Positions 9,703 to 54,021 of a stretch of 59,011 nucleotides of DNA are shown here, piece by piece; position 1 is the first letter of the stretch, and every line of letters begins with the position of its first letter. The stretch comes from Nitrospirota bacterium (GTDB taxonomy: Bacteria > JACPQY01): NCBI GenBank assembly GCA_016180645.1, contig JACPAV010000008.1:62001-121011 (forward strand). Reading direction: 5' to 3'. Below the pieces are notes generated by a model, which saw only the letters and a list, made by a program, of their open reading frames with translations, was not told where the DNA came from and made no database searches. The translations under genes were made by a program, and so were the position numbers.

Positions 9703-11769
9703 CTACACACTCCACATGCGGTCCTCGAAGTCCGCCGGGGGCACGTCGAAACTCAAAAACCCAAGCCGCGGATATCGATCCTCCATCTGACCCTTCCGGC
9801 GCACCTCCACCACAAAGTACACGCGGGTTCCGGCCGGTGCCTGAAGCGGTTCCAACGGAACGCTCATCTCGATGACCTTCTGCCGCGCCGCCACCACCTT
9901 GCCCACCGCTGCGAATCCCCCTTCGGGCGTCCGGCTGAGGAGCGCGCCTTCCAAGGGAAGGATCTTGAAGTCCCGCAGCCCAAACACGAGATGGACGTGC
10001 AGATCTTCCGCTTCCTCCTCCGGCTCGGCGGGATCGAGGCGGAGATAGAGATGAGTCGAATCGAATCCGTAGTAGATCCGGTTCAGGTAGCCCACGCCCG
10101 CCGCGAGTCGTCCCGGATCACTTCGGCATTCGTAAGAACCCGCCGCGTACCATTCCGCGTAGCCCGAGACCAGCCCGTCGATCCGGGGCGAAATGAATCC
10201 CACGGGGCCGCGCGACTCCTCCATGATCCGGACCGGTTCCAGGAGATACGGCGGCGGCTCGCACCCCACGGCGTTGTAGACCTCGATCAGGTTGTTTCTG
10301 AACAGGAGGTCGAAGGTGTCGGCCTGATCAGTATGGAATGAATCGCCGTACCACCAGAACCAATCGCTCCCCTCCGCCGCGTACATGCGCTCCAGCGCCT
10401 TCTCACGAGCCTCCGGGGTCGATTCCCTCCGCGCGAGAAATCCCCGAGTCTTGGCCAGGATCTCCCACGCACGGTTCTTCCCCGCCTGCCCGATCCACAT
10501 TTCGAACTTTCCGTCGATCCACGAACCCGTTTGGATTCGGTCCGTTTCCCGAATGTCATCGCGCGGATCGGCCAGCACGTCGGACGGCGTGACCAATTCG
10601 CAATCGGACGCATGCTTGAGGACCTCCACGAATTTCTTCAGGAACGGGCCGCCGTGCCACGGATAGTACTCCCAGGGATTCTCCCCATCGAGGGCCAGGG
10701 AAAGGACCCCCCCCCCGGAGCCTCGCGCCGTGGCAAGCCGGCGTTCAAAATCGTTCACGGCATCCGATTCGTGCATTTTGTGGTATTTGAATCCGAGTGC
10801 GTCCGAAATCGCCCGGTCGCGAAAGAAGACGACCACATCGCCGTTTCCCACCCGCGTTCGCCAAGCCTTTCGATGGTCGCCGCCGGAGGGCATCAGCGCC
10901 TGGTCCGTCATCACCCAGCGCACCCCCTTTGAGGCGAGAACCGGGATCAGCTCGGGACACATCGACCCCTCGGAGGGCCACATTCCCACCGGACGCTTGA
11001 GCTTTTCTTCGATGAACCGGAGTCCCCGGTCGATCTGGGCTTCCGCGTCATCCGGATAGGAAAACCCCACGGCGGGCAACGGTGCCGAGGGCATGCACCG
11101 GCGGGCGTAGCCGGTATCCAGGAGGAGCGGCAGAACCGGATGGTGCAGAGGGCTCGTGGATACTTCCGTTTTGTCCAGGATCCGGCGATGCAGCGCACGC
11201 GATTCCTTCAGGATTTCTCGTTGGCAGTCGAGAACGAAGACCTTGTCCTTCTCCGTGAAGTGCGTCCCCTTGCGCACGAGCTCCGTCAGATCGGGATGCG
11301 ATTCGAGAGCGGTGAAACCGAACCACGTCAGGTTGAACCACACCTGAAGATCGCAAAGATCCGCCTTCGTGAAGGACATGGCCAGATCCTCCATTTCCTC
11401 CGGAGTGATCCGTTTCCCGCGTTTCTTGAAGAGCTCCCAATAGCGCGGGTACGGCTGGATCATCGTGTCCGGGTTGCAGGAGAAGAAATCCATCAGCAGC
11501 GCCTTGCGGTCGGCCGGCGTAAGTTCCCCGGCGGGCTTCTCCGTCAGGAGCTCGAAGGCGTCTTTCGTGCCCTGGACGTACATGTCGAGCTGCTTGAGAA
11601 GGGAGGGCGTGATGTTCAGCGTGATCTTGACGCCTTCGCGTTCGATCAGCGTGAGGACGTCGTGATACCCGTGGATGGCGTGAAGGCGCACCCACGGAAG
11701 GAGCAATCTTCCGGAAATCGGATCTTGGTACAGCGGCTGGTGCATGTGGAAGAGAATGACCAGCCTCAT
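9703..11769 (-). CDS. Glycoside hydrolase family 57 (amylopullulanase-like)
   Basis: HMHQP, WPSEG, LDGEN and AEGSDWFWW GH57 conserved regions. Confidence 0.9.
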   Translation of the reverse strand: MRLVILFHMHQPLYQDPISGRLLLPWVRLHAIHGYHDVLTLIEREGVKITLNITPSLLKQLDMYVQGTKDAFELLTEKPAGELTPADRKALLMDFFSCNPDTMIQPYPRYWELFKKRGKRITPEEMEDLAMSFTKADLCDLQVWFNLTWFGFTALESHPDLTELVRKGTHFTEKDKVFVLDCQREILKESRALHRRILDKTEVSTSPLHHPVLPLLLDTGYARRCMPSAPLPAVGFSYPDDAEAQIDRGLRFIEEKLKRPVGMWPSEGSMCPELIPVLASKGVRWVMTDQALMPSGGDHRKAWRTRVGNGDVVVFFRDRAISDALGFKYHKMHESDAVNDFERRLATARGSGGGVLSLALDGENPWEYYPWHGGPFLKKFVEVLKHASDCELVTPSDVLADPRDDIRETDRIQTGSWIDGKFEMWIGQAGKNRAWEILAKTRGFLARRESTPEAREKALERMYAAEGSDWFWWYGDSFHTDQADTFDLLFRNNLIEVYNAVGCEPPPYLLEPVRIMEESRGPVGFISPRIDGLVSGYAEWYAAGSYECRSDPGRLAAGVGYLNRIYYGFDSTHLYLRLDPAEPEEEAEDLHVHLVFGLRDFKILPLEGALLSRTPEGGFAAVGKVVAARQKVIEMSVPLEPLQAPAGTRVYFVVEVRRKGQMEDRYPRLGFLSFDVPPADFEDRMWSV

Positions 11770-23051: not shown

Positions 23052-24024
23052 GAGTCAAATGGTTCATGATCCTCGCCGCGCTCGCGCTCCTGGCCGCCGG
23101 AGGCTTTTGGGCGCTTCGAAAAAAGGAGCGCAAGGCGGAAACCATCACCTACCGAACCATCCGTGTTGAGCGGGGCGACCTCCAGGTTTCCATTCTAGCT
23201 ACAGGCATCGTTCAGCCGCGCACCCGCGTCGAAATCAAACCGCCCCTCGGCGGCCGCGTGGAAGACATTCGCTTTGGAGAAGGGCAGAGCGTGCAGAAGG
23301 GGGAGGTGGTCGCGTGGATGAGTTCGGTCGAGCGCGCCGCCCTCTTGGACGCCGCCCGTGCCAAGGGACCGGAGGAATTGGCCCACTGGGAACAGCTCTA
23401 CAAACCCATGCCTCTGGTCGCGCCACTCAACGGGGTCATCATCGCGCGCAATGTCGAACCCGGCCAGAGCGTTTCGGCCCAGGACGCCGTGCTCGTCATG
23501 TCCGACCGGCTCATCGTCCAGGCCCAGGTCGACGAAACGGACATCGGGCAGGTGCGGGTCGGCCAGAGCGCCGAGATCGTCCTCGATGCGTATCCCTCCG
23601 ACCTCATTCCGGCGCAGGTCTCGCACATCGCCTACGAAGCAAGGACCGTGAACAACGTCACCATCTACGAAGTGGACATCACGCCGGGCCGCGTCCCACC
23701 CTTCATGCGGAGCGGCATGACGGCCAACGTCACCATGAAAGCCGAAGCCCGCAAGGGCGTGCTCGTGCTTCCGGCGGAGGCGATTCGGCAGGAGGATGGT
23801 CATGCCGTTGTCTCCGTGCCCGGCCCAACGCCGCGCCAACCCGGTTCGAGATCCGTCGAAACGGGCGTGACGGACGGCAAGCGCGTCGAGATCCGATCGG
23901 GGCTCGCGGAGGGCGACGTGGTTCTGATGAAAAGTTTCCGTATTCCCTCCACCGAAGGAACCAAGACCAGTCCCTTCATGCCGTGGGGCCAGCGCAAGGC
24001 CGGCGGCAAGGAGGGAAAATCGAG

Positions 24025-45829: not shown

Positions 45830-45958
45830 GATTTCCCCTCCCTTCGCTATTGATGACTCTCCTATTCTACCCCACTCTCCCAACTTCGCCAGCCATCGCC
45901 GGCCTCGATTGAATGCGGTTCAGGGCCAGACGCCATCATCACGCGAAATCGAGGGAAA

Positions 45959-46029
45959 CTGGGAGACTAGGATTCGAACCTAGATAAACGGATCCAGAGT
46001 CCGTTGTCCTGCCATTGGACGATCTCCCA
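45959..46029 (-). tRNA. tRNA-Gln (anticodon CTG), CCA not encoded
   Basis: TGGGAGA/TCTCCCA acceptor, GTCC/GGAC D-arm, ACGGA-CTCTGGA-TCCGT anticodon arm, CTAGG-TTCGAAT-CCTAG T-arm. Confidence 0.95.
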
Positions 46030-46037
46030 GAAATGCG

Positions 46038-47279
46038 TTAGGACGCGACCTTAGCACCAGCCAAGTCCGTTGACAAGGTTCCGTTGATACTTGGTGTGAT
46101 ACTTCGTTCCACGGAACCCCCTCCGGCAAGCCGCTCAACGGCACTCTGCTTGTGCGATGGCGACAGGTGCGCGTAGCGTAGGGTCATCTCAATCGTCCGG
46201 TGGCCCATTAACTCTTTCACGGTGGTCAAGTCAACCCCGGCCATCACAAGACGGCTGGCGAAGCTGTGCCGAAGGCAGTGGAACGTGAAGTCCTCGATCC
46301 CCGTCTTGTCGATCACATCCTCGAACCACTTGGACACGATCCACTTCCGCCGCCCCTGCCACCGGGGGAACACCGCATGCTTTTGCAGGATGGACGACGG
46401 CAAGGCCGCAACATTGCCCTTCTCCGTGGGTTGCAACGCGCCCATCCGCTCATCCCGCATCCGCCGGAGGGTTTCCCTCACCACGCGATTCATAGGCACC
46501 TGGTAGTTGCGCCCGCCCTTGGCCTCTTGAACGTCGATCACCCCCGCGGAAAAATCCACATCGCCCCACAGAAGTTCTTTCAGGCCGCTCAACCGGATGC
46601 CCGTGTGAAGCGCCAGCACCACAAAGGGCCTCTCGTCGTCCTTGAGCACCGCGAACACCCTTTTCTCTTCTTCGTCGGACAGGTAGCGGACGCGACGATT
46701 CTGCCTCTCCGGGTAGAACTTCACACCTTTGACGGGGTTCTTTTCCGCCTTCCCGTTTTTCATGGCCAGGTAATAGGCAGACCGTAGGGAAGCCAGGTAG
46801 CGGTTGATCGTGGTCCCCATGCAGGCTTGAGTCTTCCGGTTCTTCAATTTCCGCACCTCGGTCAGCTTCGTTTTCCACGTTTCGATCTCTTGCGCCGTCA
46901 CCGATCCGGCGGGTTTCGTTCCAAGGTGTTCGATCCAGTAGCCAAGCCGTTGCACGTCGTCGGCCCAACTCTTCTTGTTCGCCTTCCCCCACGTGATGAA
47001 GTCTTCCGCGATTTCCTTGAACGACACCGCCCGCCTTGCTCTCACCGCATCCGGCCTGAACTTTCCTTCGACAATCTCGTTCCGGCGTTTTCCGTAAAGC
47101 TCGATCGCCTTCCCCTTCGGCCCCACCCGCTCGCGGTGTAGCTTGCCGTCCCGATCCCGGTAGCGGATGTACCAGACGCCCGTGTTGACCTTCGCCACGG
47201 CGGGGACGATGAGGAAGTCTTCAACGCTGTACTTCACGTACTCGTAGACCCCACGCGGGTTCCTCTCACGCCTTGCCAT
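46038..47279 (-). CDS. int: Tyrosine integrase
   Basis: HTGIR.S, FHCLRHSFAS, LMGH..MTLRYAH (R-H-R-H-Y catalytic set); N-terminal arm-binding-like beta region. Confidence 0.95.
   Translation of the reverse strand: MARRERNPRGVYEYVKYSVEDFLIVPAVAKVNTGVWYIRYRDRDGKLHRERVGPKGKAIELYGKRRNEIVEGKFRPDAVRARRAVSFKEIAEDFITWGKANKKSWADDVQRLGYWIEHLGTKPAGSVTAQEIETWKTKLTEVRKLKNRKTQACMGTTINRYLASLRSAYYLAMKNGKAEKNPVKGVKFYPERQNRRVRYLSDEEEKRVFAVLKDDERPFVVLALHTGIRLSGLKELLWGDVDFSAGVIDVQEAKGGRNYQVPMNRVVRETLRRMRDERMGALQPTEKGNVAALPSSILQKHAVFPRWQGRRKWIVSKWFEDVIDKTGIEDFTFHCLRHSFASRLVMAGVDLTTVKELMGHRTIEMTLRYAHLSPSHKQSAVERLAGGGSVERSITPSINGTLSTDLAGAKVAS
46048..46076 (-). promoter_or_regulatory. Sigma70-type promoter inside the integrase 3' end, aimed at the tRNA
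   Basis: TTGTCA (46076-46071)-N17-TAAGGT (46053-46048), with a TGn extension and a GC-rich discriminator. Confidence 0.65.
46079..46109. repeat. 31-bp direct repeat, putative integrase arm-type sites (other copy 53774-53804)
   Basis: TTCCGTTGATACTTGGTGTGATACTTCGTTC is identical at both ends of the element and holds two TGATACTT units. Confidence 0.85.
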
Positions 47280-47463
47280 GCTTTCCCCCCTTCGTTTTGA
47301 ACGGCCTTCGACACGTCGGGCATGTTCCGAGAAACGACAACACCGCCCGGCGCATGACTTCGGACGCCGACACGCCCATTTCCTTCGCCGTCCGTCTCAC
47401 AAGGTCAAGCTCATTCTCACGGATTTGAAAAGCCGTCAAGGTGTAGCCTTGTTTCTGTTTCAT
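47266..47463 (-). CDS. RHH/CopG-like regulator with a C-terminal CxxC
   Basis: FQI..E.D.V...AKEMGVSASEVMRRAV, CPTC; overlaps the int start. Confidence 0.7.
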   Translation of the reverse strand: MKQKQGYTLTAFQIRENELDLVRRTAKEMGVSASEVMRRAVLSFLGTCPTCRRPFKTKGGKHGKA

Positions 47464-47469
47464 GGGGAC

Positions 47470-47498
47470 ACGATATTATAAGCCATTTTATATGTCAA
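47470..47498 (-). promoter_or_regulatory. Promoter for RHH-int (probably leaderless) with an internal operator palindrome
   Basis: TTGACA-N17-TATCGT, 6 nt before ATG 47463; TATAA-N6-TTATA in the spacer. Confidence 0.62.
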
Positions 47499-47531
47499 GC
47501 CCCCCCTTATCGGAGGCGCGACATCGAACCG

Positions 47532-47783
47532 TCAATCGAGTTCCGCCTCCAGCTTTTCCTGCATTTCAAGGTGGCCCACGAATGTTATCAGGGGCTTGAT
47601 CTGTTCCGCGTCCGCCTTGCCCTCCAGCACCGCCCACGCCGTTACCGTGAGGATCGAGCGAGCAGTTTTCACCGCTTGCGTGAAGCGGTCCTTGTCCATG
47701 TGGCGCCCAAGCTCGTCCCACAAGGCGGGAAGGTTCTCCGGCGTCCGCGGAATCTTTCTCGGTCGGCCTCTTCGATGGTTCAT
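47532..47783 (-). CDS. Hypothetical protein with N-terminal RRGRPRK
   Basis: GAGG RBS, 83 aa, helical character. Confidence 0.6.
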   Translation of the reverse strand: MNHRRGRPRKIPRTPENLPALWDELGRHMDKDRFTQAVKTARSILTVTAWAVLEGKADAEQIKPLITFVGHLEMQEKLEAELD

Positions 47784-48040
47784 CGTTTTACCTCACAAAA
47801 CTGAAAAATATCCATGGGGAAACGCGACAAAAAGGCCAGATATGGCGTCGAAAATGCCCTTCCGCCCTTGTTTCGGCGCTTCGATTTCATCTCCCGTCAT
47901 CACGTTCCGCGTGTTCTTACAGCGGGATACACCGGAAGGAGCACGGTGGGTCTTCAGAAAATACGGCGTGTTTCGATGTGGACGCGCAACGGGAACATAC
48001 CCCCTCCGTCATTTCTCTTGTGGATCGTCTCATCCCCCAC

Positions 48041-48415
48041 CTACGGATTCGGATGTTTGCCCGCACACCCTTTCTGCCCGCCTGGGGGGGCTTGCCGTGA
48101 TGATCCGCGGCAGTCTGCGCTCTCCCGCTTGGTGAGGCCAAGGGCGGAGAGGGTGGGGGCATCCGTAAAAGCCGGTCCCGCTTTGTGACCGGCTTTTCCT
48201 CTCCCCGGACCCGGTGCGCCCTTCGCTTTCGGCGTCTCCTTCAGGAACTCGCCCACCTTGCGCAATGCGCGTAGGCGGATCTCTCTCGCGTGGGCCTCAA
48301 GGCAACGGATCGTCCGGCCTGCCCGCCGAAGCCTTGGCGAAGGCGGGTACTCCAAGCGCCCGTCCTTCGCAGTAGCCTTGCTACGGAGGGTGGATCGGCC
48401 CTTGGCGTAGCTCAA
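48041..48415 (-). pseudogene. Probable remnant of a phage-type gene disrupted by palindromic repeats
   Basis: EIRLRA.RKVGEFLKETPKAKG..GRG..TL..LGLTK.ES resembles a common phage protein segment; the N-terminus consists of repeat sequence (48322-48393). Confidence 0.4.
48322..48393. repeat. Two bulged-hairpin repeats
   Basis: CCCGCC-GAA-GCC-TT-GGC-GAA-GGCGGG and CCTTCG-CA-GTAGC-CTT-GCTAC-GGAGG. Confidence 0.65.
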
Positions 48416-48454
48416 AGTTGTAGTTCCTTCCCGCCGGTGGTAGGAACCATTCCC

Positions 48455-48667
48455 ATGGCGGCAGAAGAAAGCCGAGATACAAAGAGAATCCGCGAATTGG
48501 TGGAAATCTTCAGACAGCTTGGCCTTGCCGCCGTGATCGGAGGAACGGCGGACGCCGTGGTGGATGGGACTCGCCTCTTGATCGACGTGTTCGGGATTGC
48601 GGTGGGGATCATCTTTCTTGGAGTCGCCGTTTGGTTGACGGGCAAGGGAAACGGCGATACCCTATAG
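48455..48667 (+). CDS. Small two-TM membrane protein
   Basis: 70 aa from ATG 48455 with two hydrophobic helices. Confidence 0.6.
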   Translation: MAAEESRDTKRIRELVEIFRQLGLAAVIGGTADAVVDGTRLLIDVFGIAVGIIFLGVAVWLTGKGNGDTL

Positions 48668-48669
48668 AC

Positions 48670-48786
48670 ATGGACGCGGCAAGCGCAGTTCTCTTGGGAG
48701 TCTTCACGAGTATGCTTTTGTTCGCCGTGGGCACTGTCATCTACGTGTCCCGCGTCACCCGCAAGAAACCGACCGTCCAGAACTGA
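48670..48786 (+). CDS. 38-aa single-TM peptide (below ORF-track cutoff)
   Basis: MDAASAVLLGVFTSMLLFAVGTVIYVSRVTRKKPTVQN; starts 2 nt after the previous stop; basic tail. Confidence 0.55.
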   Translation: MDAASAVLLGVFTSMLLFAVGTVIYVSRVTRKKPTVQN

Positions 48787-48850
48787 CCCCTTTCCCCTCA
48801 CTTCATCTCCGGCGAGAGAAAATCTGCTTGAACTCTTCCACCACTCTTTG

Positions 48851-48988
48851 ACCGCAACACCGCAACACTACACCCCTTAAAGGGGGTGTAGCTGTGTAGC
48901 GCAACATGTAGCGCAACATGTTGCACAGCAATAGTTTCAAGCACTTAGCCGAGCGCAACATCCGCGCAACATGGGGGTATGTTGCGCC
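48851..48988. other. Putative replication origin (iteron cluster plus hairpin)
   Basis: Six direct CGCAACA, two inverted TGTTGC, hairpin CTACACCCC-TTAAAG-GGGGTGTAG; directly after the primase-helicase stop. Confidence 0.72.
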
Positions 48989-48990
48989 CT

Positions 48991-50961
48991 CTACTTCTTG
49001 AGCCATTTGCGGGGTCCTCCGGGGGTGTCTAGGGCGTCGAATTTCCGCCCATCGTCCCGGCTGAAGACGGTTCGGATCGCGCTTTCGGTGATCCCCGTGA
49101 TCTCCGCGATCTCCGGGACAGTCTTCGGCCCGTTCTTCAAAGCCATCTCCACCCGCTGCCATTGGGCCAGGCCACCGGCCACGGCTTCCGGCATGGCGTC
49201 AAACTCGCTTTTCTCAAAGGTGATCCGGCCCCCCGTGAATCGGATCGTGAACCCCATCGGAGCTTCAAGCCTGCCCCCGTTGCACTTCCGGTTGAACAAG
49301 CCCACCTGGATCACGTCCTCGCCGGGGGCCTGCCCGCGTTTCATCTCCCACGTCGCCCGCGCCATGTTGTGCCAGTACCCGGAACCTATCGGCTTCTCCT
49401 GGGTGACGTTCTTCGCCACGTGCGCGATGACGAGGGAGGTCCCGCCGATGAAGCGGACGGCCTCAAAGAACTTCAATGCTCCCTCCGCCGACTCAAGCTC
49501 CCCGCCGCTGGCGGCCCCGGCTGAATCGTACACGATGAACGAATAACCGCCCTCGCCAACAAGCCGCTTGATCTGCCTCCGTTGATCGTACAGGGGACCG
49601 ATACACCGGCGGTAGCCAATGGGCGGAAGCCCCTGGTCGGTCACCATCTGCCGAAGGCGGGCCTTGTGTTCGTCCGAATCGGATTCCCAATCGAGATAGA
49701 AAGCCTTCCCCCATGTGTTGCAGGAGTCCATGAGGGGGCCGCATCCCCCTTGATGGGCTACGGCACACGCCAGGGCGAGAAGACTTTTCCCCGTGCCGCC
49801 GTCGCCGAAAAGGATCGTGGGAACACCCAGCGTCACGATTCGATCAATCAACCATCGCGTATCACGTGCCGTCATGGGCGCGTTCAGAAATTCCACCGGG
49901 TCACCCGTCTTGATTCGCTCTATGGCGAGCACGGCCACGCTCTCAAGCATCCCGGCCCAGCCGATCTGTAGCCTCTTCGACAGGTAGTTCACAAGTTGAA
50001 CCCGCGTCCCGGTGACAGACAAGTTCGTCCGCACGGGGCCGTGAATCCGTTTCGGCACTCCATCCCCGGTGCCCCGGACCAAAAGTTCAGCGTGAACACC
50101 CGTGTTCTCGGAGTGCACGCCGTCAAGCTCGATTTCGATCTTGTGTTCCGGCCAGGCGAACACCCACGCGCCCCCGCGATCCGAGAAATCGGGCGGTTCC
50201 TCGATCCCCAGCCGTTCCGCTTCGATCCGGTACCGCGTGATGGACTCGATCACGGAGCGAAGCTCCCCGGCGTCCATGGGGGGTCTGCACTTGTCGGCGA
50301 AGGGCCGGAGGATCGTAGCGATCACGTCCGCCGGGTGCCCCTTGGTGTGGAAGTATCCCGCAAGCCGGGCCGCGTCGGTGTTCCGGGTGCCTTCCGCCGT
50401 ACCCTTCGCAAGCAGACGGGATACCCAGTCTGGCGCGTCACCGTTGACCGCCGCTCCCGGATGCGCGTTGCCGTTTCCGTTCTTCCCCTTCAGGGCTTCC
50501 GGCAGATTCGACAGTACGGCAAGCGGAAGGTCCTTCAGCACGGTGTACGCCTTACCGCCTACCACGCTGGGGCAGGCCATGACGTAGCCCCCATCGCTTC
50601 GAACGTCCACGTGAGGGAGGAACCCCGCCCCAGTATGGAGTTCCGGCGTGTACTTGAAGTACAGGTGCATGCCCTTCGGCGTTTTCACCGTGAAGGTGTC
50701 ACCGGAGACACCGAGCTTCTTGAAGTTCTCCATCCCTTCCGGGCCGTCCAGGTCGATCACGCTGATTCCGCTTACGCTCCCCGTTACAATCGCCATGTTC
50801 GGACTTCCATGGGCGAACCACTTGCGGATGTCCTCCTCGGTGGGGCGTTTCGTCTGAAACGTCTTCCAGTCTACGAGCGGGGGATGTTTCTGACCCTCCC
50901 GGATCGGGATGACGGCGTACCCTCGCCGGTGAAGTTCAAGCGCGTCCGATAAGATGCTCAT
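48991..50961 (-). CDS. Bifunctional primase-polymerase / PriCT / RecA-like (AAA_25) helicase
   Basis: NMAIVTG..VIDLDG, TPKGMHLYF, DVRSDGGYV, EGTRN, GDGGTGKS, IVYDS, IAH. Track GTG start is 50973. Confidence 0.9.
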   Translation of the reverse strand: MSILSDALELHRRGYAVIPIREGQKHPPLVDWKTFQTKRPTEEDIRKWFAHGSPNMAIVTGSVSGISVIDLDGPEGMENFKKLGVSGDTFTVKTPKGMHLYFKYTPELHTGAGFLPHVDVRSDGGYVMACPSVVGGKAYTVLKDLPLAVLSNLPEALKGKNGNGNAHPGAAVNGDAPDWVSRLLAKGTAEGTRNTDAARLAGYFHTKGHPADVIATILRPFADKCRPPMDAGELRSVIESITRYRIEAERLGIEEPPDFSDRGGAWVFAWPEHKIEIELDGVHSENTGVHAELLVRGTGDGVPKRIHGPVRTNLSVTGTRVQLVNYLSKRLQIGWAGMLESVAVLAIERIKTGDPVEFLNAPMTARDTRWLIDRIVTLGVPTILFGDGGTGKSLLALACAVAHQGGCGPLMDSCNTWGKAFYLDWESDSDEHKARLRQMVTDQGLPPIGYRRCIGPLYDQRRQIKRLVGEGGYSFIVYDSAGAASGGELESAEGALKFFEAVRFIGGTSLVIAHVAKNVTQEKPIGSGYWHNMARATWEMKRGQAPGEDVIQVGLFNRKCNGGRLEAPMGFTIRFTGGRITFEKSEFDAMPEAVAGGLAQWQRVEMALKNGPKTVPEIAEITGITESAIRTVFSRDDGRKFDALDTPGGPRKWLKK

Positions 50962-51139
50962 TTTTGAGTTCACTGATTGAAACTAACAGCCAGTCCACCG
51001 CCGCGTGGAGGTTGGCTTGAATCGTATGATCCCGCCGGAGCCGCGCCCCGCATTCCGCGATCTTTCCCACAGCCTGGGAAAGCTCCTCGGCAATCCAACC
51101 CTCCGGGGTCCGGCGTTCGGAAAGTGCAATCCCCGTCAT
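50936..51139 (-). CDS. Small hypothetical protein of the replication operon
   Basis: 67 aa, ATGA-coupled to the upstream 35-aa ORF and overlapping the primase start. Confidence 0.5.
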   Translation of the reverse strand: MTGIALSERRTPEGWIAEELSQAVGKIAECGARLRRDHTIQANLHAAVDWLLVSISELKNEHLIGRA

Positions 51140-51243
51140 CCAAGAATCGAAAGGAGCAGACACCGAAACGCTTTCAACATTCGCCGCTGCCTGAAGTGAT
51201 GAAGCGCCAGAACGCGGTAGTTCTTCGACACATCTAAGCTCAT
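51136..51243 (-). CDS. 35-aa ORF, ATGA-coupled at both ends
   Basis: MSLDVSKNYRVLALHHFRQRRMLKAFRCLLLSILG; overlaps the HTH gene stop and the next start. Confidence 0.4.
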   Translation of the reverse strand: MSLDVSKNYRVLALHHFRQRRMLKAFRCLLLSILG

Positions 51244-51455
51244 CGATGCGCCAAGCCAAGGGGCATCCAGTCGCGGGGACAGCCGGCGTCGATCCAGAGT
51301 GCGAGAAGGTCAAGACGATACCGAACCGTCCTGCTCCCGCCGGGGTGGACAATCAAACACGCGGGTATCCGTCCTCGGTAGTGGAGTTGATACAACGTGC
51401 GATGCGTAAAGCCGAGTACCTTTGCCGCTTCTCTCGCTGATCCCAATTGAATCAT
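51240..51455 (-). CDS. Excisionase/AlpA-like HTH protein
   Basis: AREAAKVLG..RTLY..RGRIP..RTVRY..L.LWIDAGCP. Confidence 0.78.
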   Translation of the reverse strand: MIQLGSAREAAKVLGFTHRTLYQLHYRGRIPACLIVHPGGSRTVRYRLDLLALWIDAGCPRDWMPLGLAHR

Positions 51456-51465
51456 ACTGCTCAAG

Positions 51466-51550
51466 AGTCTACACCCGCGTAGAATCGCGGTCAATGACTA
51501 TCTGTCACTGTTACCGCGACAAAAGAGAGGGTGGTATTTGTCGCGGTAAC
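51466..51550 (-). promoter_or_regulatory. Promoter and operator of the xis-primase operon
   Basis: TTGACC (51494-51489)-N17-TAGACT (51471-51466); perfect 14-bp inverted repeat GTTACCGCGACAAA-N13-TTTGTCGCGGTAAC (51510-51550). Confidence 0.7.
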
Positions 51551-51561
51551 GTAGGGGGGGG

Positions 51562-52476
51562 CTAGTCCGGTGGGGGAAAGAACTTGGAAGCGCCGGTTTG
51601 AAATCTGTTGACTTGAACGCTTCGTTGCAACGCTCTTGCGGCGCTTCCCTTGGTCGAAATCCCTCGCTGATTCGTGAACATCGGCGCAAGCAGATGCAGA
51701 ATCAACCCCGACATCGAACGTTTTGGAGTTCTTCCCTTCTTTCCCTGACCCTTCGGGGTCGGATCGAGCCAATCCTTGATTTCGTCTGTCATGGTCGGCG
51801 CAAGGTCCGTGTTTGGAAAAGAAGCCAGCAACGCGGTTTCCCACCGTGGGTCTTTTCTTTGGCTCTTGTAGACCCCTTTCGGCATGGGCGGGAAGAGAGG
51901 GGATATGTGCTGTTTCAGTGTCCAATATGCCGTCGCCACAGCGACGTGAAAGTCTTTCGGTGTGTCAGGCTTTCTCTTCGGTAGCTGAAACTTGGACTCA
52001 AACAGCAATTTGAAGCGAGAAATCTTTTCCGATCCATTTTCGGCGTCCATAACCTCACCGACAAGCTCCCGGAACCGCTGCAATAGAACGGGACCGCTCA
52101 TCTTCCCGGCGTGATTGCGGACGAATGCAAGGAAAGCGTCACCGATGGTGCGTCCTTCCGGTGGAAACGTATTTCTCAAATCTCTCTCCAGGCTTGGGAA
52201 TACCCCCCGCAGGGGGTTCGGGATTCTGTCCCTTCGTGCCGAGTGCATTTCTCCATAGAGTGTTCTCGCGGTAGTCGGCAAAATGCAGGGTTGATTGTTC
52301 CAATTCGCCTTGATGTAGCTTTCCGGGGTCCACTCGGCGCGGCACCGGGCAAGACTGTTTACGACATCCTCACGATCCCGGTTTTCTTTCCTGCGCCGAG
52401 CATCCTCCGTGAAACGCGGTTCGATGTCGTCGTTTCTTGGCTCCCCATCCGGGGGCGTGAAATCCTTTTCCGGCAT
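51562..52476 (-). CDS. Hypothetical protein, possible element regulator
   Basis: Long ORF (track extends to 52680); likely ATG 52476 after a purine-rich RBS. Confidence 0.55.
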   Translation of the reverse strand: MPEKDFTPPDGEPRNDDIEPRFTEDARRRKENRDREDVVNSLARCRAEWTPESYIKANWNNQPCILPTTARTLYGEMHSARRDRIPNPLRGVFPSLERDLRNTFPPEGRTIGDAFLAFVRNHAGKMSGPVLLQRFRELVGEVMDAENGSEKISRFKLLFESKFQLPKRKPDTPKDFHVAVATAYWTLKQHISPLFPPMPKGVYKSQRKDPRWETALLASFPNTDLAPTMTDEIKDWLDPTPKGQGKKGRTPKRSMSGLILHLLAPMFTNQRGISTKGSAARALQRSVQVNRFQTGASKFFPPPD

Positions 52477-52664
52477 TCGTCGTTCCTTCCTTTCAGCCCG
52501 GCGCGAGTTGGGAGACACGCTCCGGCCTTTGTTCTCCTCCACGCCCTTCGCTTCATTCCCGGCAACCGATTCCCGTCCGGTCCCGGCCTTCCGTCTCCTG
52601 GGCTTTCCTATGCTCACCCTTGTGGCATGGGCTTGAGTTGCAGAACGCGAGCGGGATCTGTTCA

Positions 52665-53633
52665 CTATTTCGGGCACCAAGGTGCATCTTGGAGAGCCTG
52701 AGTTGAGTTGGCCAAGTTCGATTCGACATGACTTGAGGGAATCGCAAAATTGATGTTTTGGGAATCGACCAAAGAGTAGGATGCAATCCCGATCACCTGC
52801 CCATCTTCGGTGATAACGGGGCCTCCACTTGAACCGGGAGAAATGGGTGCAGTAATCTGAATGACATCAATCCCATGAACCATCTTCCGTCCGGCGACAA
52901 TTCCGTCGGATACCGTCGGTGACAACCCTGATTCGCGGCCACCGAGGGCCGAGAGTTCCGCGGCTCTCGGAAACCCAATGACATATACCTTCTGCCCTGC
53001 ACGAACGATTGTCTTTCCCATCACTCTTGCGTACTGTTCGGGATCTAGACCTAGACCCATGTCTGAGTCACCCAGAGATAACGTGTGAAGATATTTTGCA
53101 AGAGCGTCGGAAAATAAACTGCCCGTGAGGACCTCAGACCACAATTGAGTATTTTCGGATGATGTCTCCGCCCGACTAACGGCCAGGATCACAAGATCCT
53201 CCGATCTACTTCCATATGTGAACCCACTTAACTTCAGCCTGATTCCATCAGACCGAGCTATAGCGATCTGGTCCGGCCGGCAAAACCCGTCCAGGACGTG
53301 GTAGCTCGTGACAAGGTAGTTTGTTGCAAAGAAACCCCACCGAAACCGTTCCTTCGTCTTCCTCATCTGTTCGCGCATGGAGTCGGCAAATGGGTTGGCG
53401 ATCATGAAACCTGATCCGGTTCCTTTGGGCGTGCTCACCAGAAATGTGGCTTTTATTGCTCGATCAATTACCTGCTCAATTTTCTTTTCCTCACCTGTCG
53501 CGGCCACGGTACCGATGGTGATCGCCAAGGGGATCATCGACAGGCGCAATAACCACCGCTTCTGAACTCCGTGCGGGCCAGCAGGGCCGCACCTGCCCAC
53601 GCCATACTTACCTCTTTCCGAACGCTTCACCAC
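52665..53633 (-). CDS. Trypsin-like (S1/HtrA-type, no PDZ) serine protease with an N-terminal hydrophobic segment
   Basis: GTGSGF, VTSYHV (His), DLVIL (Asp), ISPGSSGGP (Ser), NFAIP. Confidence 0.85.
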   Translation of the reverse strand: MVKRSERGKYGVGRCGPAGPHGVQKRWLLRLSMIPLAITIGTVAATGEEKKIEQVIDRAIKATFLVSTPKGTGSGFMIANPFADSMREQMRKTKERFRWGFFATNYLVTSYHVLDGFCRPDQIAIARSDGIRLKLSGFTYGSRSEDLVILAVSRAETSSENTQLWSEVLTGSLFSDALAKYLHTLSLGDSDMGLGLDPEQYARVMGKTIVRAGQKVYVIGFPRAAELSALGGRESGLSPTVSDGIVAGRKMVHGIDVIQITAPISPGSSGGPVITEDGQVIGIASYSLVDSQNINFAIPSSHVESNLANSTQALQDAPWCPK

Positions 53634-53939
53634 GGAACTCCTACGCCCATTGTCGGGGCATCCCTGAAATCGTCACGGACGTGTGTGTATCGGGGGGAAA
53701 GCAATGACCTTGTGGCGATCCACGGGAAAGGTCCCGCTTGGTGTTGCCGGGGGGGGGGGGTGCCTTCTGCTACTTCCGTTGATACTTGGTGTGATACTTC
53801 GTTCATTGAAAAGCATTGTACAGCGTTGAACAGAGGGAACAAGGCCGCTCCCATTTATGCACGATCTCACGGGGTGTTACTGCTAAATCGAAGTACAGCG
53901 TAGAACGGCGAATAACAGGATTGACAGGGTGTCCACCCT

Positions 53940-53978
53940 ATCCAGAGTCCGTTGTCCTGCCATTGGACGATCTCCCAG
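53940..53978 (-). repeat. att core copy, equal to the 5' half of tRNA-Gln (through the anticodon loop)
   Basis: Identical to 45992-46030. Confidence 0.95.
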
Positions 53979-53993
53979 GAAAGGCCGGGGAAC

Positions 53994-54021
53994 AGGGTAG
54001 CGTTTTCCCACCTTTTTTCAA
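53994..54021 (-). promoter_or_regulatory. Probable native tRNA promoter, now facing into the element
   Basis: TTGAAA-N16-TACCCT with a GC-rich leader before the 5' tRNA fragment. Confidence 0.45.

Follow-up and report, generated by a model that had tools for sequence, protein, structure and literature searches.

Integrative elements that enter tRNA genes may carry a fragment of either end of the gene, and those with the 5' end belong to the reversed-orientation tDNA (tRNA gene) islands, reportedly named by Zhao and Williams in 2002. Among the 3,919 islands in Table 1 of Islander, 159 have a 5' tDNA fragment and 3,760 a 3' fragment (PMC4383910), and the 5' polarity has been called 'considerably less frequent' (PMC6563490), which agrees with the remark, in a first-pass annotation of the DNA described here, that 5' duplication is the less common arrangement. 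The Islander filters expect 5' fragments upstream, a tyrosine integrase inside the interval and a length of 2-200 kb (PMC4383910). We describe here an element of 7,948 bp with a tyrosine integrase gene inside the interval, which falls within these filters and was found in a tRNA-Gln(CTG) gene of a bacterium of the Nitrospirota (assembly GCA_016180645.1, contig JACPAV010000008.1, positions 62,001 to 121,011; these 59,011 nucleotides are called the window). As in the reversed-orientation islands, the integrase-bearing element lies between the intact tRNA and an upstream 5' fragment of the same orientation, its attP is apparently centred on the anticodon, and it replaces the front of the gene together with the upstream region.

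The design of this element recurs throughout its integrase family, and both polarities, the reversed and the usual one, occur within that one family. The explanation that best covers the whole, a reversed 7.9-kb integrative element whose target tRNA is transcribed from element DNA, is one that we regard as fairly probable.

Ends of the element and the divided tRNA-Gln gene

ARAGORN calls a single tRNA in the window, the tRNA-Gln(CTG) (Table 1). Its nt 1-39 lie within an exact 39-nt direct repeat, and from nt 40 to nt 73 it consists of the host's original 3' part. The other copy of the repeat is placed at the far end of the element, upstream of the intact tRNA in the tRNA sense and in the same orientation, and the distance between the two copies gives the length of the element. 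The repeat, which extends to 42 nt at 98%, corresponds to the tRNA 5' end through the anticodon loop plus one base (the anticodon is at 34-36). BLAST against the whole 65-contig assembly found two copies only, both in the window. The first-pass annotation had described the att repeat as covering the tRNA from its 5' end up to and including the anticodon loop, and the element as duplicating the 5' half of the gene; both descriptions hold, with one base to be added to the former.

On the same strand, the integrase stop codon TAA (46040-46038) is followed by 7 nt (46037-46031) and then by tRNA nt 1, the intact tRNA thus starting at the eighth base after the stop, as had been noted. At the far end, a promoter-like site is formed by TTGAAA (54021-54016), 16 nt and TACCCT (53999-53994), with 15 nt left to the 5' fragment. 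Scored with a sigma70 position weight matrix (PWM), this site reaches 9.53 (shuffle p 0.009, top 0.48% of random genome windows). The earlier view of it as the apparent native promoter, about 8 kb off, is upheld in that the site is cut off from the intact tRNA and stays with the fragment. It is now directed into the minus-strand genes of the element.

An exact 39-nt and an exact 31-nt repeat within 10 kb are far beyond chance. The element is a well-preserved tRNA-gene island of reversed polarity, and it is probably active.

Table 1. Features of the element and its target gene, with positions in the window
Feature	Position	Strand	Evidence
Intact tRNA-Gln(CTG)	45958..46030	-	ARAGORN; Rfam RF00005 64.7 bits, full model
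Integrase-proximal att core (tRNA nt 1-39)	45992..46030	-	Exact direct repeat D3
Tyrosine integrase, 413 aa	46038..47279	-	PF00589 E 7e-29; phrog_1
Candidate sigma70-type promoter TTGTCA-N17-(TGc)TAAGGT	46048..46076	-	Sequence; PWM 10.57
Predicted arm-type site pair in the integrase coding sequence	46079..46109	-	31-nt exact repeat D4
Ribbon-helix-helix (RHH) protein, 65 aa	47266..47463	-	PF01402 E 4e-4, at gathering score
Consensus-like promoter TTGACA-17-TATCGT, upstream of RHH-integrase	47470..47498	-	10/12, simple scan
Replication protein (prim-pol, PriCT, AAA_25 helicase-type), 660 aa	48991..50973	-	PF09250 E 3e-29; PF13481 E 3e-15; PF08708
HTH_17 protein, 84 aa	51240..51494	-	PF12728 E 6e-7; phrog_66 'excisionase and transcriptional regulator'
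Cargo protein without known family, 372 aa	51562..52680	-	
Cargo trypsin-like serine protease, 322 aa	52665..53633	-	PF13365 E 7e-16
Second predicted 31-nt arm-type pair, other arm of the inferred attP	53774..53804	-	Repeat D4
Displaced tRNA-Gln 5' fragment (nt 1-39), far end of the element	53940..53978	-	Repeat D3; BLAST, own genome
Stranded host promoter-like site TTGAAA-16-TACCCT	53994..54021	-	Sequence; PWM 9.53

Predicted design of attP, and polarity in the integrase family

The two copies of the 31-nt repeat stand in direct order, one per element end, the far one 136 nt inside the far-end core. Each contains two AAGTATCA units 12 nt apart, which in the integrase copy are at 46104-46097 and 46092-46085. 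We predict that these pairs are arm-type sites on both sides of the core, as in lambda-type attP. The attP that we infer would be lambda-like and about 284 bp long, made up of an arm pair, 48 nt, the 39-nt core, 135 nt and an arm pair, with the pairs 49-79 nt to one side of the core and 136-166 nt to the other.

Two further features were noticed near the far end. The motif ACGCTGTAC occurs twice in the far-end arm (53888-53902 and 53812-53826) and once more, inverted, at 47220-47235 in the integrase 5' coding region, which makes an inverted repeat of 16 nt (94% complementary). The RHH protein, or the Xis-like protein described below, may have its site there. Between the far-end arm sites and the first cargo gene there are 12 consecutive G (53749-53760; C when read on the gene strand), and contigs from the sequencing runs end or vary beside them.

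The closest proteins to the integrase are at most 45% identical to it (search of 5.8 billion proteins). From the 30 nearest integrases a profile was built, with which 80 genome loci were retrieved. The alignment of these 30 sequences (A1) shows the catalytic R-K-H-R-H-Y set to be present, R229, K254, R337 and Y369 being invariant and H334 and H360 at least 90% conserved; a C-terminal tail of ~29 residues, which overlaps the attP arm, is not conserved. A same-strand tRNA follows the integrase stop directly in 35 of the 80 loci, often with a gap of 0-30 nt, and 26 are of the usual 3' type, with the tRNA convergent to the integrase. The remaining 19 have no tRNA within 450 nt of the integrase. 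The first-pass annotation had asked whether integrase homologs share 5'-tRNA att sites; the same-strand layout is that of the 35 loci, the convergent one that of the 26.

Far-end fragments could be mapped in 11 loci, 5 reversed and 6 usual. In the reversed loci L042, L059 and L078 the fragment is nt 1-40 or 1-41, and shorter exact stretches were found in L034 and L057; in the usual loci (L032, L045, L054, L076, L082, L104) it runs from nt 29-33 to the 3' end. The 5'-type and 3'-type blocks overlap at nt ~30-41 only. Because of these boundaries, and because the identity block of our element ends at nt 39, one base beyond the anticodon loop, we place the crossover in the anticodon loop, with the element carrying the 5' half. 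The anticodon stem-loop would thus be the crossover region of both types, polarity being the sole difference between them.

Arm-type repeats in the tail are a trait of the whole family. A tandem repeat of at least 7 nt with a spacing of 9-13 nt was found in 49 of 61 integrase tails, and in 5 of the 11 mapped loci (L042, L078, L034, L032, L104) the tail unit pair is also present at a distance of 140-180 nt inward from the far end, with a single unit near the far end in 2 others. The recurrent 'TDTxTDT'-like C-terminal peptide of alignment A1 appears to be these arm-type DNA sites in translation. The first-pass annotation had given the integrase tail a triple role; those of coding sequence and arm-type site agree with the family tails, and that of promoter, discussed below, is only plausible.

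Another motif near the core, YAA-N4-TTGAWW, is present in 11 of the 35 reversed and 7 of the 26 usual loci. Its strict form thus occurs in 18 of 61 loci (tails of L028 to L107), where, whichever the polarity, 13-35 nt separate it from the neighbouring end of the tRNA. It resembles the E. coli consensus of integration host factor (IHF) and has the appearance of an IHF-type bending site that several phyla have kept. Since it is found in both polarities, it belongs to recombination and not to tRNA expression. The TTGAWW box was also tried as a -35 or -10 element and rejected: it lies 13-28 nt from tRNA nt 1 with YAA four bases upstream, and it is equally frequent beside the tRNA 3' end in usual-type loci. 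In the 100 nt of our element that were examined the motif is absent, and no IHF-type site was recognised there.

The distribution of polarity was followed on a quick maximum-likelihood tree of 51 integrases, 10 loci having been left out (match below 850 nt, or stops). Polarity is clustered, with 7 changes on the tree against a mean of 16 for shuffled labels and none of 500 shuffles as low, and the starred branches force at least 3 changes. Moreover, among 80 free phage contigs the attP carries the 5' half in L110, L124 and L157 and the 3' half in 6 loci, the remainder having no match to the small tRNA library used.

The genome studied here contains further elements of the reversed type. One lies at tRNA-Met (C32:100938-117830), its fragment of nt 7-37 being 16.8 kb upstream. 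Another is at tRNA-Leu(TAA) (C28:~82100-83775, fragment 1.5 kb upstream), and tRNA-Leu(CAA) probably has one as well (C36:5284-6561). The two tRNA-Leu elements have near-identical arm repeats (CTACCGGAAGC, twice).

Expression of the divided gene

According to our proposal the element would have inserted itself in reversed polarity into the tRNA-Gln(CTG) gene, at the anticodon loop, its attP bringing tRNA nt 1-39 where others bring the 3' part. The functional tRNA of the integrated form would combine a 5' half from the element with a 3' half from the host and would start 7 nt behind the integrase stop, and the host promoter-like site would be left with a dead 39-nt fragment at the far end. The tRNA would then be transcribed from element DNA, most likely from the sigma70-like site in the integrase tail, with read-through from the promoter of the RHH-integrase pair as an additional or alternative source, and RNase P would trim the leader of the transcript.

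The candidate site lies within the last 13 integrase codons and is composed of TTGTCA (46076-46071), a 17-nt spacer with TGc, and TAAGGT (46053-46048). The end of its -10 box is 17 nt ahead of tRNA nt 1, and the GC-rich stretch CGCGTCC and the integrase stop codon come after it; in all this the letters are as first described. The score of 10.57 is reached by 0.4% of 1,000 shuffles of the 90-nt region (p = 0.004) and by 0.27% of 20,000 random 90-nt windows of this genome, and the candidate ranks fifth among 48 tRNA upstream regions (two tRNA arrays excluded). The PWM is informative in this organism, because 10 of the 47 other tRNA regions exceed the random 99th percentile, with sites of the form TTGACx-16/18-TAnnnT. 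These best native sites lie 9-34 nt before the tRNA, a range that includes the 17-nt gap of the candidate.

Several observations count against this promoter. The matrix is a heuristic one, with E. coli frequencies, and the candidate has only 8 of 12 matches to the consensus (plus TG), below the threshold of a simple promoter scanner, which asks for at least 4/6 matches in each hexamer. The hexamers, which had been expected to be conserved in integrase homologs, are not: a shuffle p < 0.05 is found in 3 of 35 reversed tails and in 3 of 26 usual-type control tails, and the median scores (5.8 reversed, 3.3 controls) amount to no enrichment. The sister elements of the same genome, at tRNA-Met (C32) and tRNA-Leu (C36, C28), score 5.1, 0.06 and 2.2, and because these three sites are poor a promoter of its own is not a rule of the reversed design. 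The replacement promoter announced by the first-pass annotation is thus rated as only plausible, the high rank in the genome standing against a consensus match of 8/12 that is unconserved. We nevertheless lean, with some reserve, towards transcription of the tRNA from its own promoter in the integrase tail.

The importance of the tRNA to the host bears on this choice. ARAGORN makes a second tRNA-Gln(CTG) call inside a 30-tRNA array on C21. Since this copy fails the Rfam tRNA threshold, its best fit being the tRNA-Sec model at 24.6 bits, the check for other tRNA-Gln(CTG) genes leaves the window gene as the only canonical tRNA-Gln(CUG) found in this 97%-complete assembly. CAG accounts for 69% of Gln codons in 1,489 long open reading frames (ORFs). 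The tRNA-Gln(CUG) is probably needed at a good level, and such a need favours an own promoter without proving it. The earlier suggestion that precise excision is the only tolerated way to lose the element would agree with the single canonical gene and the share of CAG, and the tRNA-Gln(UUG) on C7 speaks against it; it is kept here as a suggestion.

Two dense and partly alike tRNA arrays were seen in this genome, at C21:21779-25649 (30 ARAGORN calls, 23 of which pass the Rfam tRNA threshold) and C29:62471-67783 (26 calls); the genome total with the arrays is 104 tRNA calls. The C21 array has UUA (stop-reading) and CUG tRNA-like genes (C21:23835-23910 and 23919-23995, the same as L108:9837-9911 and 9921-9997). 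Both have long acceptor stems and fail the Rfam tRNA model, and their fit to tRNA-Sec is weak (27 and 24.6 bits). They may be non-canonical species similar to 'allo-tRNA'.

The strongest alternative, still a doubtful one in our judgement, is that the tRNA lacks a promoter of its own and arises by read-through, either of the RHH-integrase transcript or of a longer one started at the stranded host promoter. RNase P and 3' nucleases would release it, and the hexamers in the tail would be a chance by-product of the attP arm sequence. This would agree with the 10/12 consensus site that the simple scan reported upstream of RHH-integrase; the region has 3 such sites altogether, a number equal to the average of its shuffles. 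Between that site and the tRNA there is only one minus-strand terminator-like site, inside the RHH gene. The 7 nt between integrase stop and tRNA, the gaps of often 0-30 nt in the 35 relatives, the want of good promoter sites in relatives and sister elements, and the conserved near-core motif tied to recombination all point the same way. On the other side, the tail site belongs to the top 0.27% of genome windows and is positioned like native tRNA promoters, and a tRNA that decodes 69% of Gln codons would depend on an operon of a kind that is usually weakly expressed while integrated. Own promoter and read-through are not mutually exclusive.

A more elaborate reading, which we think improbable when taken as a whole, makes of the integration an exchange of two promoters joined to a state-dependent control of the integrase mRNA. 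In this scheme the integrase-tail promoter would take over the only canonical tRNA-Gln(CUG), and the strong host tRNA promoter would be aimed at the protease cargo, Xis-like, replicase and integrase genes. In the free circle the tail promoter would drive the half-tRNA and those same genes, and only the integrated form would put a complete tRNA, hence an RNase P cut, behind the integrase stop. The logic of such control would be comparable to that of lambda sib retroregulation.

It is far less probable that the integrated layout is a choice of the assembly, the element being mostly a free circle and an intact chromosomal tRNA-Gln standing behind its own promoter. The read evidence consists of k=31 contigs of four DNA runs from one study. 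The 39-nt core is longer than this k, and the run contigs stop inside both the 39-nt and the 31-nt repeats with neither junction bridged; nor did they show a joint across the element that would mark a circle or an empty site. The k=31 graph does not tell the integrated form from a circle plus empty site, and the integrated order rests on the assembly itself, not on reads. Among 40 other genomes, of which 1 belongs to the same family and 39 have only the domain in common with ours, none showed an empty attB, and the tRNA-Gln of the same-family genome shares no flanks with the window at the DNA or protein level. These points are opposed by the contig of the window, which runs through both junctions, by an element depth equal to that of the flanks in all four runs (e.g. 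9.3 versus 10 and 11.3; 41.5 versus 37.9 and 41.8), and by the same layout, with a far-end 5' fragment, in 5 independent genomes (L034, L042, L057, L059, L078) and in the tRNA-Met element of the own genome. Because of the equal depths, the contig across both junctions and the independent genomes, the integrated form is almost certainly real.

Equally remote is the idea that the host can do without the split tRNA, which would be silent or made in small amounts, with no selection on its promoter; tRNA-Gln(UUG) (C7, 60.7 bits) would read CAG by wobble, and many bacteria manage with that species alone. Against it stand the intact state of the tRNA (64.7 bits, exact repeats), the prevalence of CAG among Gln codons and the non-canonical nature of the array copy with the CUG anticodon.

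Gene content and comparison with known systems

All recognisable genes of the element are on the minus strand. Pfam was run on 15 ORFs of the window, 13 of them in the element, and PHROGs on 13 ORFs. The RHH gene overlaps the integrase start and has no PHROG match; its product is likely to be a regulator or directionality factor. The HTH_17 protein, by its family matches, is a candidate excisionase or regulator (Xis-like), and the 660-aa replication protein also matches PHROG primase/polymerase families. Part of the cargo protease resembles PADLOC RT-Protease_XI (E 1.5e-13). The cargo was considered as an RT-Protease_XI defence system and rejected, the defence-system scan having matched the protease domain alone, without a reverse transcriptase. 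Co-directional genes were also considered as a mark of the reversed type, and a crude greedy ORF count, which mis-called GC-rich genes, gave no clear difference from the usual type.

In each of the four metagenome runs, contigs break at a GC-rich palindrome (48316-48347) that is covered 10-30 times as deeply as the sequence on either side; many organisms of the sample share this short repeat. The 124-aa ORF lying over it is of low complexity and probably no gene.

With P4-like satellites and phage-inducible chromosomal island (PICI)-like elements our element shares an integrase, a prim-pol/helicase, an AlpA/HTH_17-type regulator and a size below 10 kb. Unlike in these, genes for capsid remodelling, packaging or helper interaction were not recognised in the Pfam and PHROG scans. 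The label 'satellite-like' of the first-pass annotation was therefore dropped, there being no capsid or helper-related families among the 13 element ORFs, a weak negative on the PHROG side, where 9 of 13 were unmatched.

The paired arm-type direct repeats flanking the core are as in lambda-type attP. A difference from the lambda-type attP with its IHF site is that the YAA-N4-TTGAWW of many relatives is absent here. In Mx8 and SSV integration alters the integrase protein, whereas here it leaves the protein unchanged because the frame stops 7 nt before the core. The overlap of the integrase frame with part of attP is common to those two systems and to ours (cited in PMC4383910).

The supply of a tRNA by the element has a counterpart in the tRNA-dependent lysogeny of mycobacteriophages. 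There, the element supplies the tRNA whose host gene is disrupted, as is proposed here, and the element-borne promoter is demonstrated by reporter assay (PMC10865867). Those phages bring a whole separate phage tRNA gene and the host gene is destroyed (PMC10865867), whereas here the gene is rebuilt from two halves.

If our proposal is correct, the case illustrates how a mobile element makes its host rely on element DNA for a core translation component, in this instance the only canonical reader of the major Gln codon. In this integrase family, which is widespread in soil and groundwater bacteria and has its predicted arm sites written into the integrase's own tail, loci of the supposedly rare 5' polarity are about as numerous as those of the usual one (35 versus 26 of 80 loci). 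A literature search on tRNA promoters together with attP, integrase and tRNA gene returned nothing on 5' polarity. The value of the locus lies in annotation, namely the exact ends of the element and the predicted attP design, and in the compact test case that it provides for element-borne tRNA promoters; the known picture of tRNA-gene integration is unchanged.

Compared with the reversed-orientation tDNA islands, what is specific here is the tRNA-Gln(CTG) target, the host, a groundwater bacterium that is uncultured, the spacing of only 7 nt between integrase stop and tRNA, and the good sigma70-like site in the last integrase codons. The reversed layout itself is already documented, and the element differs from the known islands in nothing of kind.

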